From contig NC_091475.1 of the NCBI RefSeq assembly GCF_036971445.1, positions 204,848,001 to 204,912,000 of the forward strand: a stretch of DNA of 64,000 nucleotides, read 5' to 3'. Positions within the stretch are counted from its first letter, which is position 1; the number at the start of each line of letters is the position of its first letter. Below the pieces are notes generated by a model that made no database searches, was not told the origin of the DNA, and worked only from the letters and a program-made list of their open reading frames with translations. Below are positions 3,214-45,641 of the stretch, piece by piece. The DNA is from Narcine bancroftii. Lineage: Eukaryota. The position numbers and the translations under genes were made by a program.

Positions 3214-3438
3214 TGTGATGGAACACAGTAATACATGCTTTGTACTGGTTTGCCTTCCCCTGATACTGTACCTCCTCCCCCTCCAGAATTCCTAATAAAG
3301 GCAGAACCACCCAATCTCTTCCCTCTATACTACCTTGGATATGGGCCAACAGCATTTAAGAGAAGGCTGTAAGTTTATAGTGATTAAAGCCTATTAATCT
3401 TGACGTCTGGTCTGTTGGGTATAATTGATAGCACTGCA
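3214..3438 (+). repeat. 5' LTR of element 1
   Basis: TG...CA, 225 bp, homologous to 7197-7422 and to split solo LTR 45003-45641. Confidence 0.9.
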
Positions 3439-6400
3439 ATTTAATCACCATAACTGCATGGCATGGACGAGGCTATTCAAGTGGAGAAGCTGGACACTGA
3501 CCCTAAGGATCCAGGGGTCTCTGTAAAATTCGACCACCTTTATGAAACATGACATTTGGGAAGAAGTCAAGGAGAGAGGCCAGCTGTTTGCACAGGTCGG
3601 CCACCGTGTTTTCCAGATGATCAGGGACTGTGACACTGGCCCAGCCTCTGTAGGGCTCTGAAGAACATAATCTACAGCTGATACTCAGCCGTTGGTAAGC
3701 ACCTGGTGAATCTGTTGACAATTACATTTGGGCCTTGTGGGAGCTGAGTTAAGCTTGTGGCTGCACAGACATTACGACACCTGTCTACCAAGAGGATTTG
3801 ATCAGGGACGCCTGTGCAGCTGGTCTCAGGTCTGACCATATTTGACAAAGGCTCTTGGAGAATGACGATCGAACCCTGCAGGACATGGTCAATCTCGCCA
3901 AGGCACTACAGATGGACCAACTGAATGTGAACACTTACTCCTCCAGAAAAGTGGCTGCCAAATGGGGAGCATGGGTGTCGCCATCTTAGGATATGGGGTC
4001 CCAAACAGCAGCCATTATTGCTGAGCGTCGGAGGTGAGATTACTAAGGCCAGACAAAGCACCCTTGGAGGAACTGTCCTGCTAGAAGTTCGACTTGCTCC
4101 AACTGCAGAAGAAAAGGACACTATGCAAGGATATGTAGATCCAGACCTTCCCCTTGCAGCACTGCATGCAAGCAGCAGCCATCGCCATCTTGGACCGCAT
4201 CATTTCCAGTTCCACTTCTGGTAATGGAGAACATCATGGTGGGGACCTTGGCGTGACAGCTGGGGTTAACGTCACTTCCAGCTTTACTTCCGGCAGCAAC
4301 CGCTTGTGAACCATGGGGGCAGGCATCTTCAGGGTGATCATCTTGGATGTCGCTGACGCATATGTACAGTAGCTGAGAGTCAGGCAACGAACTGACGCTG
4401 ACATCCAATGTCTGGACCAGAGCAGCCCACATTAATTAGCAAGGTTCATTGAGGTAAACGGGTGCATTACTAACTGCTTGTTCAACACGGGAGGCATCAA
4501 CACTTTACACACCTGGGTACTGTACAGCACTGCTCCCTCACAGTGACCACAGTCCAGTGTAAAATCTCATTGGCCTTTAATCCCATTCAACTGAAATAAC
4601 TGAAGTAACGAAAACTGTGGGTGGTACCAAGAATTTTAAATTGTTCGTTATGTCACAACTCTGTGCACCAGGCATGCGGGGGCTGGACTTGCAGTGCCAA
4701 TTTAAAAGTGTTCTAATGGAATATGGCAGGTCCCACCCTCCCTCACGGTCCGTAATAATCGACTTTTAAACCACCTGCCCATCTCCGTAAAATCAGCCCA
4801 TCAGAAACCTGAACACACCCCACCTGCTCACGACCTGCGGTCTGTCCATCTTCCAAGTCCCACCGCCCCCCATTCGAAAATGCCACTCCTGACGGTAAGC
4901 CTAGGGCAACTAAGAGCAGGCGATACAATCCTGGGTACAGAGACTTTATCAAGGTTGACTCCTGGCAGAGGGCATCATAGGACCCAACACAGCCCTTGAA
5001 GAGCACAGACAGTGGTTGTAAAGAGGGGGGAGAAGCACAGGATGGTCATAGACTACGCCAGACCATCAACAAGTTCACCCTCTTGGATGCCTATCCCCTC
5101 CCCCACATAGCCAGCATGGTGAATGAGATTGTCCAATACGGGGTCTTCTCCAGCATTGACCACAAGTTGGCCTATCCCAGCTCCCAATCCGGCCAGACTC
5201 CTTTAGAGTCATGAACGGAGTTTCGGTCTTCCAGAGTGAGATGGACCGAATAATGGATGGCCACCAACTGAAAGCCACATTCCCCTACCTGGACAACGTG
5301 ACTATCTGTGGCCATGAACTGTAGGATCAAGATGCTCTCCTGCGAAAATTCCTCCAGATGGCAAAAGTCCTAAATCTCACATATAACCAGAAGAGTAGAG
5401 CCTCTGGCTCTACTAGAGTGCATGGTTGAGAATGGAGTCATTGGATCCGACCCTGAGCATATGCAGCCCCTGCTCAAGCTCCCACTCCCCCATAACTTCA
5501 AGGCCCTGAAAAGGTTCCTGGGGTTCTTTTCATACTATGCTCAATGCATCCCCAATTATGTGGACAAAACCCACCCCCTGGTAAAAACTACTACCTTTCC
5601 CCTGTCGGCAGAAGCCCTGGTGGCCTTCACTCACATCAAAAGTGGCATTGCCAAGGCAGCGATGCACACCACAGACAAATCCATCTCATTCCAGGAGAGC
5701 AATGCATCCGACTTTGCCCTGGCTGCTACGCTGAACTAGGTGAGCAGGCCGGTGGCATTTTTTCTCACGTACCTTCCAGGGTCCCGAACTCCGACACTCA
5801 GCCATTGAAAAAGAGGCCCAGGCCATAGTGAAAGCTGTGCACCACTGGAGACATTATCTATCCGGCAAACCGTTCACTCAGCTGACTGACCAACTTGTAG
5901 TCGCAATTATGTTTAACAACAAACAGCAAGGAAAAATTAACAACCACAAGATCCTGAGGTGGAGAATTGAACTGTCCACCTACAACTACCAGCCCAGGAA
6001 GATTAACGAGCCTCCCGATGCCCTAACAAGGTACCTGCACCAACGCACAAGCAGATCACCTCCAAGCCCTTCACCGCAGCCTCTGTCACTCCAGGGTCAC
6101 CAAATTCTATTGCTTTGTGAGAGCCCACAACTATACGTACCAGGTGGAGGACACCAGGGAGCTGACCTGCAGCTACCTCGACTGCATGGAGTGCAAGCCG
6201 CATTTCTAGCGGCTGGAGAAAGCTCACCCGCCTCTTTGAATGTCTAAGTATGGAATTCAAGGGCCCTCTCCCCACCACGAACTAGAACATATCCCATTCG
6301 CCATCCACTGGCCAGATAGGACTACGACCACTGTTATTAAGTCCCTACATAAACTCTTCATGCTCTTCAGATACCCGAGTTACATCCACAGTGACCGGGT

Positions 6401-21655: not shown

Positions 21656-21706
21656 ATCTGCCCTCAGTTACTAGAATCATCTACTCTGGGCAACTGACTG
21701 TGAACA

Positions 21707-24700
21707 TGAAATGCCAGTTGATGAAGTAGACAAAGACGATGTGGTCAAACAATAATCATGGCTTTTATTCACAGAAACTCATGGTACAATAATGAAAGAC
21801 AATAGATGCACATACAGTTATATCCAAGGGGAGTGTCCTTAACAGAAGAGATAACGCACAGCCAATGTTAGTACAGCAAGGCTCGCCAGAGGGGAGACAG
21901 GCAGCTTGGCAGAGATTCACCACAGTCTCCCCCCAGCAGAAGAAGGGTTAAAATCAAAAGGACAGCTGCTAGGAAAGACTGAAGCAAGCGATACATGGAT
22001 ATTATGTTTGGCTTTGAGATACTCCAACAGCCAAAATACGCCAGTATCTAGCAAGTAATCAAAATATAATGTGATGTTTTATGAATATGTCGGCCTATCA
22101 GGCTGTTTATGAATTCTGGTGCTTCGTCTCAAAACAGGTCGCTCCTTTGCAACCTTGGGAACTGGTACAGGTCCTAGGTCTGTAGTGTGGGAAGGACTGG
22201 CTTCTGGACCCGCTCCAGAATTGCCAGCGTGAGGCAGTGGAGCCTCAGCATGGCCATCTGAAAGCTGACTAGGTCACAAGTTGGGGGGGTGAGTCCAACC
22301 TCTCAGGATTACTCTGAGTAGGGGTGTGGGGAAGGGGAGAACCAGGCGAGGCCAGATCTCTTAGGGGTACAGTGTCAGTACTCCCGTCTGGGAATTTAAC
22401 ATGAGCGTAGTTGGGGTTAGTATGCAGTAGCTGAACTGGTTGGACTAGGGGGTCTGTTTTACGTGCCCGAGCGTGGCTCTTCAGTAGCACGGTTCCAGGC
22501 TCAGATAAACAGGCTGGCCAGTCCATTACAGTTCCTGATTTCCTAGGAAAGGCAAACATACATTCATGAGGTGTTTGATTTGTTGCAGTACACAATAAAG
22601 ACCGAATGGAATGTAGTGCCTCAGGCAGCACCTCCTGCCACCGGGTAACAGGGTAACCATGTGTTTTTAAAGCAAGATTAACAGTCTTCCAGACTATAGC
22701 ATTAGCCCTTTCAACCTGCCATTGCCCTGTGGGTTGTAGCTCGTGGTACGGCTGGTGGCAATCCCATTTTGTAGCAGGGCTCGCCGCAGTTCAACGCTCA
22801 TGAATGCTGAGCCTCTACCGGTATGAATGTAATTGGGAAAACAAAAAATGCTGAAAATTCTGTCGTGACTTAGTGACAGACGCTGACGAGACGACAGGGC
22901 AGGGTATCGCAAAGGGAAACCTGGAATATTCGTCAATTACAGTAAGGAAATATACATTTTTGTTGTTGAAAGGTAACGGCCCTTTAAAATCTAAGCTAAT
23001 ACTCTCCAAAGGTCGGGTTGCCTTGATGAGAGTGGCCTCTGGAGCTTTGAAGTATTACGGTTTGCATTCTGCGCAAACAGGACAGCTTTTAGTCAATTTC
23101 CTGACTTCTTCCAGAGAGTAAGGAAGGTTGTTAGCCCTTATGTAGTGGAAGAATCTCATGACTCCTGGGTGGCACAGTCTGCTATGGATCTCTTTTAGCC
23201 CCTCCAGCTGAGCACCAGCAGCAGATCGTGACAATGTGTCAGAGGGATCGTTTAACCTGCCCGGTCTGTACTGGATCTCATAATTATAAGCTGAGAGTTT
23301 TATTCGCCAGCGTGCCATCTTATCGTTCTTGATTTTACTTTTGTGTTTAGTACTGAACATGTAGGCTACAGATTCCTGATCAGTGACAAGAGTAAATTTT
23401 CTGCCAGCTAGAAAGTGTCTCCAGTAGCGAACAGCTTCAATAATAGCCTGGGCTTCTTTTTCAATGGCAGGATGTTTAAGTTCAGGTCCGCGTAACGTGC
23501 GGGAGAAGAATGCCACAGGTCTGTCCTTTTGATTAAGGGTTCCTGCCAAGGCACAATCTGAGGCATCAGTTTCCACTTGGAATGGAACATCCTCGTCAAT
23601 GGACAAGAGTGCAGCTTTGGCAATATCAGCTTTAATTCTCTCGAAAGCCTTCAAGGCCATTGGAGAGAGAGGAAAAGATTTAGTGTGAAACAGAGGGCGT
23701 GGCTTCGTGGCGTAGTCCCGAACCCATTTGCAGTAGTAGGAAAAGAATCTCATACAGCTTTTAAGGGCTTTTGCTGAGTTTGGGGGTGGTAACTTCTTAA
23801 GGGGGGCCATTCTTTCCGGGTCGGGGCGGATTTCGCCCTTGCGGACAATGTAGCCCAGAATGGGTAGCTCTGTCGCATTGAACACACACTTGCCCTCGTT
23901 AACTGTAAGGTTGACTTCTTTAGCTGTTGCTAAAAATTTCTTTAAGTTGTTGTCGTGATCAGCCTGTGTTTTCCCACAGATAGTGACATTATCTAGATAG
24001 GGGTATGTACCCTGTAACTCATACGTCCTAACAATCTTAACCATTTCCCTCTGAAACACGGACACACCATTAGTGACCCCAAAAGGTACCCTTTTAAACT
24101 AGCATAACCCTCCCTCAGCCTCAAAAGCCGAATAGGGCCATTGCCTTTTCTTAATGGGGATTTGGTGATAAGCTGCTTTGAGGTCGATAGTGGAGAACAC
24201 TTTGTATTGCGTTATCTGATTAATCATTTCATTGATGCTTGGCAGGGGGTAGGCATCCAGGTTAGTGTAACGATTGATTGTCTGGCTGTAATCAATAGCC
24301 AGTCGTCTCTTAGTGTGATTTTTCACGACTACCACTTAGGCCCGCCACGGACTCTTACTAGGTTCAATTACTCCCTCTTTAAGCAATCTCTGGGTCTCAG
24401 CTTTGATAAACTCACGATCCTCTTTGCTGTAAGAACGGTTCTTAGTGGCAATCAGTTGACACTCAGGGGATAAATCACTGCATCTTTAATGTGAACAGAC
24501 CACAGTAACTTGCACGGGGAATGGTAAATGTGGGTAGCGGCCCACCAAAATTTAACACTACACTTTCATCTGAGATTGAATATCTAACCCCAGTAACACA
24601 GGGGCGCAGAGCTCTGGCATAATAAAGAGCCACACATCAGTCAGGCAATGTCCCTGCAAATTTAAAGTAACTTTACAGTTGTCCCGTACAGTTTTTGTAA

Positions 24701-25979
24701 GTTCACTACAAGCCATTGATATCTTTCGGTTCGCTGGATATCTCCGCAAATTTAAGGTTCTGGCAACTCTCTCGTGGATGTAGCTGTCAGTACTCCCCAA
24801 GTCTATTAGACAATCAAGAGTCTCACCATTCACCTTCCCCCTTCATAGTCGACCATTCCAGTCTGTAACATCCCCCAAGCTTTGGAGTCAATTGAGCTAT
24901 CACAGGGGATCTCACCTCGCCGTCACTTGATGTCGATTCAGCCTGCTCGTCTGAAGATTCCCCCTTTTCACAGTTGTCTTCCATTCCTGCATCTCCAGGA
25001 AGCATTTTTTTTGGTGGTTCTCTTCTTCTTCTTATCAGTGGGAGTATTTTTCGCCTTACGCGCTTTAGCGAAGTGGCCGAGTTTCCCACAATAGCTGCAG
25101 ATAGCAATCGAGCCGGGCACTTCTGTCTTGGGTGCCAGCTCTTATCACAGAAGTAGCATTTTCAAGAGTTCGCCCTTTTCTTTCCTTCGGGATTCCAGGA
25201 CTCCTGGATGTTTCCTTTTCGGTTTCTAGCATTTCACTGGACCGCATGGCACTTCTCAGTGTTTTGGCTAGAGTGACTGCCCGGTCGTAGGTTAATGGCT
25301 CTGTCTCCAGCATCCGCTGTCGGATGTAACTGGAGTCAATCCCGTTGACTGAAGCATCCAGCTTCAAAGCATTGCGGTGTTGTTGCACCTTGACTGCCCT
25401 GACATCACATTCATTTGCCAGTGAGTCGAGAGCCAGTGCATAGGCAGCATCACTTTCCCCGGGGTTTCTGGCCTCTAGTCAGCAACTGGTGTCGAGCAAG
25501 CACCACATTCTGTGGCGGTGCGTAGTAAGCGGTCAGACGTTCCCGGGCTACAGCCAGAGGGGTAGCTCCTTGCGTTACGGCGAAAGGGTCCTCACCCAGC
25601 AGGTGGCCCAACTGTATCACCTCATCGACCATGTTGTTTCGAGCCATGTAGTAATCGAAACAAGCAATCCAGTGGTTGAAAACTTCTCTGGCCCTTGGGG
25701 CAGACTGGTCGATTATCAGCCGCTCTGGCCTAAGGGCTGCATCCATTTCTGCTAATAAAATTGAAGGGCCAGTTGATGACGTAGACAAAGACGATGTGGT
25801 CAAACAATAATCATGGCTTTTATTAGCATAAACTCATGGTACAATAATAAAAGACAATAAATGCATATACAGTTATATCCAAGGGGAGTGTCCTCAACAG
25901 TAGAGATAATGCACAACTAATATTAGTACTGCAAGGCTCGCCAGAGGGGAGACAGGCAGCTTGGCAGACATTCATCACA
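21707..25979 (-). mobile_element. Full-length Ty3/Gypsy LTR retrotransposon (element 2), best-preserved copy
   Basis: LTRs 25762-25979 and 21707-21924 (218 bp, about 18 mismatches by eye); PPT GGGGGGAGAC; gag ATG 25746 (MDAALRPERL); protease CLIDLGSTDSYI; RT; RNase H; integrase SLDFKGPLP, TVIDEYSRFPFA. Confidence 0.95.
23055..24065 (-). pseudogene. pol: pol fragment of element 2 (RT C-terminus, RNase H, integrase zinc finger)
   Basis: 336 aa ORF: YPYLDNVTICG, VETDASDCALAG, AIEKEAQAI, LVTDQ, HSRLCHPG...CPVCAECKP. Confidence 0.9.
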
Positions 25980-26049
25980 TACCCCTCATTATTTTATAAG
26001 CCTCGACAAGGTCATCTCCTCTCCATGATGAAGACCCAGACTAACTCTT

Positions 26050-45002: not shown

Positions 45003-45641
45003 TGTGGTGGAACACTGCCTTACAGTCAATGTACTGGTTGTTCCACCCTGATACTGTAACTCCTCCCCCTCCAGAATTCCTAATAAAGGTGGTATCGTTC
45101 AGTCCCCTCCCTCATACAGATACACGATCCTTTATCCGGAACCCTTGGGGGACAGTGTGTTCCAAATTTTGGATTTTTCCAGATTTTGGAAAGCCAGATT
45201 TAAGCCCACCCAAATTATGCTGCCGGTCTCCCCCCACCCACCCTCGCCCGGCTGACTTGCGTTGCCGTTCTCCCCCGCCTTGCCTGCCTGACTCACACTG
45301 CCGTTCTCCACCCCCCTCGCTCACCCGAGTCACACTGCCGATCTCCCCCCCCCCCCCCCGACTCGCGCTGCCAGTCTCTCTCCCTCATCCCCGCCGACTC
45401 GTGCTGCAGGTCTCTCCCCCTTGCCCACCACCCCCCCCCCCCGACTTTTGCTGCCGTCTCTCTCTCTCCCCACTTGCTAGATTTTGGAGCTTTCCAGATT
45501 TTAGATGTCCGGATAAAGGATAGTGTGCAATACTGCCTTGGAATTGGGTCAAGAGCATGTAAGATATGCCTGTAAATTTATAGCGATCAAAGCCTATTAA
45601 TCTTGACTTATAGACCGTAAGGCCTAATTGATACCGCTGCA
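45003..45641 (+). repeat. Solo LTR of the element-1 family, split by a MITE
   Basis: 45003-45116 plus 45531-45641 rebuild the LTR; perfect 5-bp TSD CCCTT. Confidence 0.9.
45117..45530. mobile_element. Tc1/mariner-type MITE with internal minisatellite
   Basis: TIR ACACGATCCTTTATCCGGA / TCCGGATAAAGGATAGTGT, TA duplication, ~35-bp GACTCGCGCTGCCGGTCTCCCC-like tandem units. Confidence 0.85.

Follow-up and report, generated by a model that had tools for sequence, protein, structure and literature searches.

A candidate self-priming site behind the LTR of a Ty3/Gypsy retrotransposon in Narcine bancroftii

How does a Ty3/Gypsy retrotransposon prime its minus-strand DNA when the bases behind its 5′ LTR are complementary to its own LTR? 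This question is raised by Element 2, a decayed 4.27-kb Ty3/Gypsy LTR retrotransposon on the minus strand (25979-21707) of the window, that is, the whole 64,000-nucleotide stretch of Narcine bancroftii DNA analysed here. TG...CA LTRs, a polypurine tract (PPT), and the order gag–protease–RT–RNase H–integrase identify it as Ty3/Gypsy (Table 1). Its two LTRs, of 218 bp each, are identical at 200 of 218 positions, and as a single broken copy the element is biologically dead. No target-site duplication was found around this copy; 5-bp target duplications were present at the sister copies L365, L367, and L371. The flanks of Element 2 (21687-21706 and 25980-26000) presumably resemble parts of a LINE-type repeat. 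A further LTR of the Element 1 family, the third in the window, lies at about 45513-45634; it is partial and is not followed by a leader.

Table 1. Coordinates of the features of Element 2 and Element 1 in the window
Feature	Position	Strand	Basis
5′ LTR of Element 2, 218 bp, TG...CA	25762-25979	-	sequence comparison
TATA-like box, predicted, putative function	25872-25877	-	LTR position 103
Initiator-like site, predicted +1 at 25848, 31 nt ahead of arm end	25846-25850	-	motif; not RNA-mapped
LTR arm, predicted 3′ part of self-primer; predicted cut between 25818 and 25817	25818-25832	-	complementarity
Inner helix stacked on primer duplex, then unpaired LTR end	25769-25817	-	predicted folds
One spacer A (25761) and predicted 15-nt primer binding site (25760-25746), last base = A of gag ATG	25746-25761	-	complementarity
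Broken gag (two CCHC knuckles)–protease–RT–RNase H–integrase, with stops and frameshifts	22079-25746	-	ORFs, domain matches
Polypurine tract, same position in sister copies	21925-21936	-	sequence
3′ LTR of Element 2; arm 21777-21763 has the shared two-base variant	21707-21924	-	sequence comparison
Element 1: 5′ LTR 3214-3438, arm 3375-3388, spacer 3439, primer site from 3440	3214-3452	+	layout as Element 2, other letters

Pairing between leader and LTR in Element 2

The initial annotation had described a hairpin between the leader and the LTR of Element 2, and its measurements were reproduced. On the minus strand, leader bases 25760-25750 (TTTTATTAGCA) are the exact reverse complement of 25828-25818 in the LTR, and the pairing extends to 14 of 15 bases (25760-25746 against 25832-25818); the outermost base is the A (25746) of the gag start codon. 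From the CA that closes the LTR at 25762 to the ATG, the leader comprises 15 nt (25761-25747), and the three differences noted in the corresponding arm of the 3′ LTR were located at LTR positions 151, 154, and 155. An AATAAA hexamer lies inside the arm of the 5′ LTR (25824-25819).

The chance level of this pairing was evaluated using shuffled LTRs. Among 20,000 dinucleotide shuffles, three gave an 11-nt perfect complement beginning no more than 4 nt from the LTR end; none of 5,000 shuffles gave a 14/15 match so placed. The overall folding energy was unexceptional (z = -1.6; 18 of 200 shuffles equally good), so the signal resides in the exact complement and its position. A Rfam search gave no match at E ≤ 1. 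In folds predicted from the putative start, the 11 core pairs of the Element 2 primer duplex had pair probabilities of 0.94-1.0, and a GCCA:UGGC helix (GCCA 25817-25814 with TGGC 25772-25769) was stacked on the duplex, leaving the LTR end unpaired as the first template. The primer duplex and one stacked inner helix recurred in all three predicted folds, and a third duplex, which would complete the three-duplex "pretzel" of Tf1, was inconsistent among them. In a local fold, the hexamer of the 3′ LTR was paired to nearly the same degree (unpaired with a probability of 0.02-0.24) as that of the 5′ LTR (0-0.01). The initiator-like site reads TTATT in the 5′ LTR of Element 2, and TCATT in its 3′ LTR and in most sister copies.

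Conservation of the pairing among copies and families

The pairing was further assessed in sister copies, taken as the best 29 others among 40 scored of 1,501 candidates and ranked by likeness to a query that contained the hairpin. In this set the 15-nt leader was kept in 29 of 29 copies, with 15/15 pairs in 20 and 14/15 in nine. The role in priming proposed by the initial annotation would have been undermined by a loss of pairing in other copies or by a longer leader of tRNA type; the pairing was kept throughout, no such leader was seen, and the priming role is supported. None of the 30 loci described below has a leader starting with TGG, and Element 2 has not lost a longer leader of tRNA type.

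The three arm differences have separate histories. The one at LTR position 151 is private to the 5′ LTR of Element 2, and the sister copies have C there, which restores 15/15 pairing. Those at positions 154 and 155 constitute a variant that an exact-pattern search found to be common to seven loci, and a two-base leader variant at five loci is the exact complement of this arm variant at the seven other loci. Since variants are exactly complementary across loci, information moves between leader and arm. Within single copies, tracking of leader and arm variants was not evident: all five variant leaders sit behind the common 5′ arm, the variant pair never occurs within one 5′ end, and a CpG site in the Element 1 family gave 11 concordant vs. 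6 discordant copies, some rows being misregistered. A subfamily with matched variant arm and variant leader was sought and none was found. The variant 3′ arm was seen in two full-length elements (Element 2, arm 21763-21777, and L371), each of which has a 5′ arm and leader of the common type; in these two, the 5′ arm was possibly corrected from the leader via template switching.

Families were gathered via gag-start searches of the host genome and of metagenome contigs, and 30 loci, one or two per family and related to each other, were picked by hand from both sources. Extra copies of represented families were left out, as were loci that had lost the leader or the 5′ LTR (L137, L150, L152, L065, L067, L070, and L076) and 56 of 80 metagenome loci that had no gag start or insufficient flank. 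LTR ends were verified against the 3′ LTR in those metagenome loci that have one. The site begins one base past the LTR end in the 30 loci; 26 of them pair in the same register at no fewer than 12 of 14 positions, the remaining four having 11 or fewer, and G-U pairs occupy 5 of 420 cells. This site beside the 5′ LTR is complementary to the element's own R region and, judged by the absence of a TGG start (0/30), to no tRNA 3′ end. When 13 diverse, well-paired families were aligned, 96.2% of 182 cells were paired, with 37 double-sided changes, no one-sided change, and no wobble pair; none of 500 shuffles was as good and slid controls were 28-53% paired, figures that are inflated by the relatedness and hand choice of the loci. 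Because wobble is wholly absent across the 13 families, the data suggest that site and arm are kept matched through templated copying and not solely by selection for RNA structure.

The coupling to translation initiation that had been proposed for Element 2 is not supported. The first ATGG, found in 25 of the 30 loci, lies 15-36 nt from the LTR end, so the abutting ATG is specific to its family. Poly(A) suppression, also proposed for Element 2, is possible: 20 of the 30 loci have an AATAAA or ATTAAA hexamer within the arm, and ten do not. Neither the ATG distance, which varies, nor the hexamer therefore belongs to the conserved core.

Second-strand transfer requires a primer complementary to the primer binding site. 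As the R arm alone tracks each family's letters, the primer would be the element's own R arm, and the 15 bases past the LTR very likely represent a tRNA-independent primer binding site of the Tf1 style. Our preferred reading, which we hold with good confidence, is that the clade of Element 2 uses a self-primer cut from the 5′ end of its own RNA. The RNA would fold back so that the leader pairs with its own LTR arm; a cut directly past the paired arm, presumably by the element's own RNase H as in Tf1, would then free a 3′ end that primes minus-strand DNA. Transcription would start upstream of the arm end, by about 31 nt in the Element 2 family and by 52 nt in the young family described below, making the primer a 5′ fragment of about 30-55 nt with only its last 13-16 nt paired. 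Plus-strand synthesis would copy the primer in every cycle, which would keep site and arm letter-perfect, and over-long primer copies together with fold-back of plus-strand DNA would generate aberrant insertions.

Aberrant copies with inverted LTR tails

In addition to the Element 2 family, the host genome contains a young family of the same clade (L161-L185), in which 150 of 150 scored matches were identical over the first 70 gag residues and many copies have open frames of more than 1,400 aa. In some insertions of both families, the LTR end is joined to a tail, such as that of 34 nt at L195, in which the LTR recurs as its reverse complement, running upstream from the arm. A pattern search found 68 such junctions in the Element 2 family and 254 in the young family. 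All 68 junctions of the Element 2 family were analysed: 18 tails were 18-35 nt long (13 of them 28-35 nt, four exactly 31 nt), none fell at 36-53 nt, 11 were 54-151 nt, and 39 ran through all of U3. The 90 of 254 tails analysed in the young family comprised 16 of 22-58 nt (nine at 50-58 nt), none at 59-74 nt, four intermediate, and 70 with the full U3. The initial idea that every extended copy would stop at the cap site was rejected, as most run through U3.

An initiator-like TCATT about 30 nt past the TATA-like box predicts a +1 whose distance to the arm end is 31 nt in the Element 2 family and 52 nt in the young family. The short-tail peaks fit the predicted site of each family, where the start sites are motif predictions and the young-family initiator was chosen while the first tails were being viewed. 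After shared junctions were merged, the peaks were family-specific (12 vs. 3 and 2 vs. 8; Fisher p = 0.005, post hoc, two families) and were followed by empty 15-nt bins (12 vs. 0 and 8 vs. 0). Three young-family tails reached 53-55 nt after removal of microhomology, past the predicted 52 nt, and no cap-derived C was seen after the four 31-nt tails. From motifs and aberrant tails taken together, the predicted start would precede the paired arm by 16-38 nt. Behind the short tails, internal sense sequence followed in 10 of 18 cases (Element 2 family) and 11 of 16 (young family), an arrangement that a misplaced second strand transfer would produce. We read the short tails as probable mis-transferred copies of the complete RNA primer, which suggests a primer with an unpaired 5′ extension, unlike that of Tf1. 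In the Element 1 family, for which a length of 63 nt had been predicted beforehand, two matches were found, one with a tail of 18-19 nt and one with a long tail; a fourth family gave one aberrant match, also with a long tail. Among the contigs of four RNA runs, one contig (run X1) has the extended junction.

The same junction, a 52-53 nt tail joined to the interior of gag, occurs at three loci (L234, L254, and L321). This suggests continued transposition of a deleted derivative whose primer site was extended.

The full-U3 tails need another template, because a 5′ RNA primer cannot template U3. Given their frequency (39/68 and 70/90), DNA fold-back or a 3′-LTR template is also at work. In the young family, palindromes with exact ends (433-437 bp) were flanked by 5-bp target duplications in 10 of 13 cases, and by a looser criterion in 15 of 22; some of these palindromes have rare variants common to both arms. 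Target duplications together with shared rare variants on both arms indicate that the fold-back precedes integration. Ten palindromic insertions of 433-437 bp with 5-bp target duplications (L231, L232, L236, L255, L256, L327, L333, L337, L341, and L349) are built from an LTR, an A, and inverted copies of arm and U3. Both of their ends are U3, and they resemble foldback elements in appearance but are of LTR retrotransposon origin. At L312, the host flanks of the palindrome are inverted too, which marks a larger inverted duplication or an assembly artefact.

The full tails also bear on a different form of self-priming, in which the arm copy lies at the RNA 3′ end (of a circularised or a second packaged RNA) or a small LTR-derived RNA acts in trans; we consider this unlikely. 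It would account for the 26 of 39 full tails in the Element 2 family (24 mapped, two by eye) that enter the inverted PPT and the internal region and thereby point to a 3′-LTR template, and it is consistent with the poly(A) hexamer that ends the arm in 20 of 30 loci and with variant leaders whose own arms do not match. However, only 2 of 70 full tails enter the PPT in the young family, the short tails end near the predicted start in two families, and partial LTRs cluster at the arm end (13/26 at 55-65 in the Element 2 family, 32/51 at 39-60 in the young family). This clustering fits a cut and, equally, a DNA hairpin loop.

Still less probable is a hairpin that mainly hides the 5′ poly(A) signal or gates translation, with an unrecognised tRNA or tRNA fragment as the primer and the aberrant copies arising from DNA template switches at an inverted repeat. 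The hexamer, which lies in those 20 arms and is fully paired in the 5′ fold, and the predominance of fold-backs among the aberrant tails agree with such a role, but several of the ten arms that have no hexamer form perfect stems and the ATG distance is variable (15-36 nt). Furthermore, the site differs between families in step with the LTR of each, a pattern that no single tRNA could match, and the 182 cells include no wobble pair. Finally, chance or an assembly artefact, for which the A/T-rich stem, the z of only -1.6, and the inverted flanks of L312 might be cited, has a negligible probability, being refuted for the pairing by the shuffles (0/5,000), the 29 of 29 copies, and the covariation, and countered for the palindromes by target duplications in 10 of 13.

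A 31-nt partial-LTR junction at a small U5 hairpin was shared by five young-family loci (L240, L302, L329, L331, and L332) and is a recurrent or amplified rearrangement.

Clade placement and comparison with known systems

The position of the clade was evaluated using protein searches, domain searches, and a tree. Element 2 protein homologues numbered 1,065 matches; among the 120 listed, the closest named ones were from rays and a shark, then from a nematode, a sea anemone, and a tunicate (a Styela homologue is included), and many further ones were proteins on contigs of about 4 kb. YLDN was present in the RT of 86 of these 120. No chromodomain, GPY/F-SH3, or env match was found in the Element 2 ORFs of the window, and neither chromodomain nor GPY/F-SH3 was found in four of four homologues at E ≤ 1 or in the precomputed domains of all 120 listed homologues. 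Both domains were present in most matches of another search. In an RT–RNase H tree (quick search, 30 rows, midpoint root) built with no Mag, Osvaldo, or fungal chromovirus rows, the 17 rows of the clade formed their own branch with an SH-aLRT of 99. RT–RNase H identity was about 31% to ten sushi-like fish proteins and 27-30% to three Gmr1-like fragments. By these features, the clade appears separate from the sushi-like chromoviruses and from the Tf1/sushi group. A viral contig search returned no relative, and an Atlas search returned generic Gag clusters only.

Self-priming has been proven experimentally for yeast Tf1 and, as far as the available text describes it, is assigned among Gypsy elements to the Tf1/sushi chromoviruses. 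In Tf1/Tf2 of S. pombe, Tj1 of S. japonicus, and the Tf1/sushi group, the primer site is described as complementary to the element's own R region, with helices stacked about the cut and no tRNA involved (PMC7175516, PMC10085805, PMC4600332), and self-priming was proposed for Tj1 (PMC4600332). The first 11 bases of Tf1 RNA are reported to pair with the primer binding site and to be cut by RNase H between bases 11 and 12 (PMC7175516, PMC10085805). The clade of Element 2 resembles Tf1, as described there, in the primer site just past the 5′ LTR, complementary to the R region, and in the predicted second helix stacked at the putative cut, which is comparable to the structure in PMC10085805. It differs in a duplex of 13-16 bp vs. 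11 in Tf1 and, from Tf1/sushi, in having two CCHC knuckles, no chromodomain or GPY/F-SH3 match, and an RT–RNase H of only about 31% identity. Thus Element 2 very likely works like Tf1 in self-priming without being a Tf1/sushi member. Tf1 cDNA is also described as retaining a primer-site overhang that leads to aberrant insertions (PMC11042837). Beyond Tf1, self-priming was predicted from LTR-PBS complementarity, the type of evidence that also underlies our reading, for Tf1/sushi, plant Tcn1 (Gypsy), and TAR/Houba/Osr-1 (Copia) (PMC6317226). Those lineages differ in being from plants, with Tcn1 a chromovirus and TAR a Copia element, and the available parts of that paper mention no aberrant-copy evidence.

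Among named animal clades, the markers given for the Cigr-1 clade (GyDB branch 2) are two CCHC knuckles, a GANG-type flap, ILG, an integrase after RNase H, the loss of GPY/F, no chromodomain, and no env (PMC2774666 supplement 3), and the same marker code is held by some Osvaldo-clade elements (PMC2774666). The Cigr-1 clade was reported from a tunicate and molluscs (PMC6238403). This marker set, as far as it is described there, fits the clade of Element 2 loosely, by description rather than by sequence, and the flap of the Element 2 clade is mostly xMAS/T, not TANG; membership in the Cigr-1 clade is a lead only. The Cigr-1 ORF is about 1,210 aa long, and its LTR measures 245 bp. A literature search found no stated priming mode for Cigr-1. 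Selgy, considered as a self-primed Gypsy, represents a Selaginella clade and was rejected.

Some animal Gypsy families are reportedly marked as self-primed in Repbase. In a search conducted largely outside subscription journals, Repbase Reports, and GyDB pages, no prior report of self-priming in a non-chromovirus animal Gypsy clade, or of such primer relics, was found. We tentatively propose, as a possibility that falls somewhat short of even, that a widespread animal Gypsy clade outside the chromoviruses evolved self-priming independently and with another architecture, a capped primer of 30-55 nt whose paired 3′ end is often the poly(A) signal, and that its errors filled the host genome with primer relics from which start and cut sites can be mapped, along with 433-bp palindromes, bearing two U3 ends and 5-bp target duplications, as a route from LTR retrotransposon to foldback-like repeats. 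A separate clade (rays, sharks, tunicate, sea anemone, and nematode) that appears to be self-priming argues for a repeated origin or a deep ancestry of tRNA-free priming. Self-priming would explain why such elements are scored as having no primer binding site and would release them from control by tRNA fragments. Moreover, mis-copied genomic relics appear to keep the primer, and aberrant copies would provide a genome-only readout of primer length, applicable to any predicted self-priming family.

Other Ty3/Gypsy-type elements of the host were also recorded. By domain order, most PF24626 matches in the host were Gmr1-like (our own label); two were sushi-like fragments. The host contains many decayed elements with the integrase before RT (Gmr1-like; L377-L395 and L399) and a few chromodomain-bearing sushi-like fragments (L396-L397).
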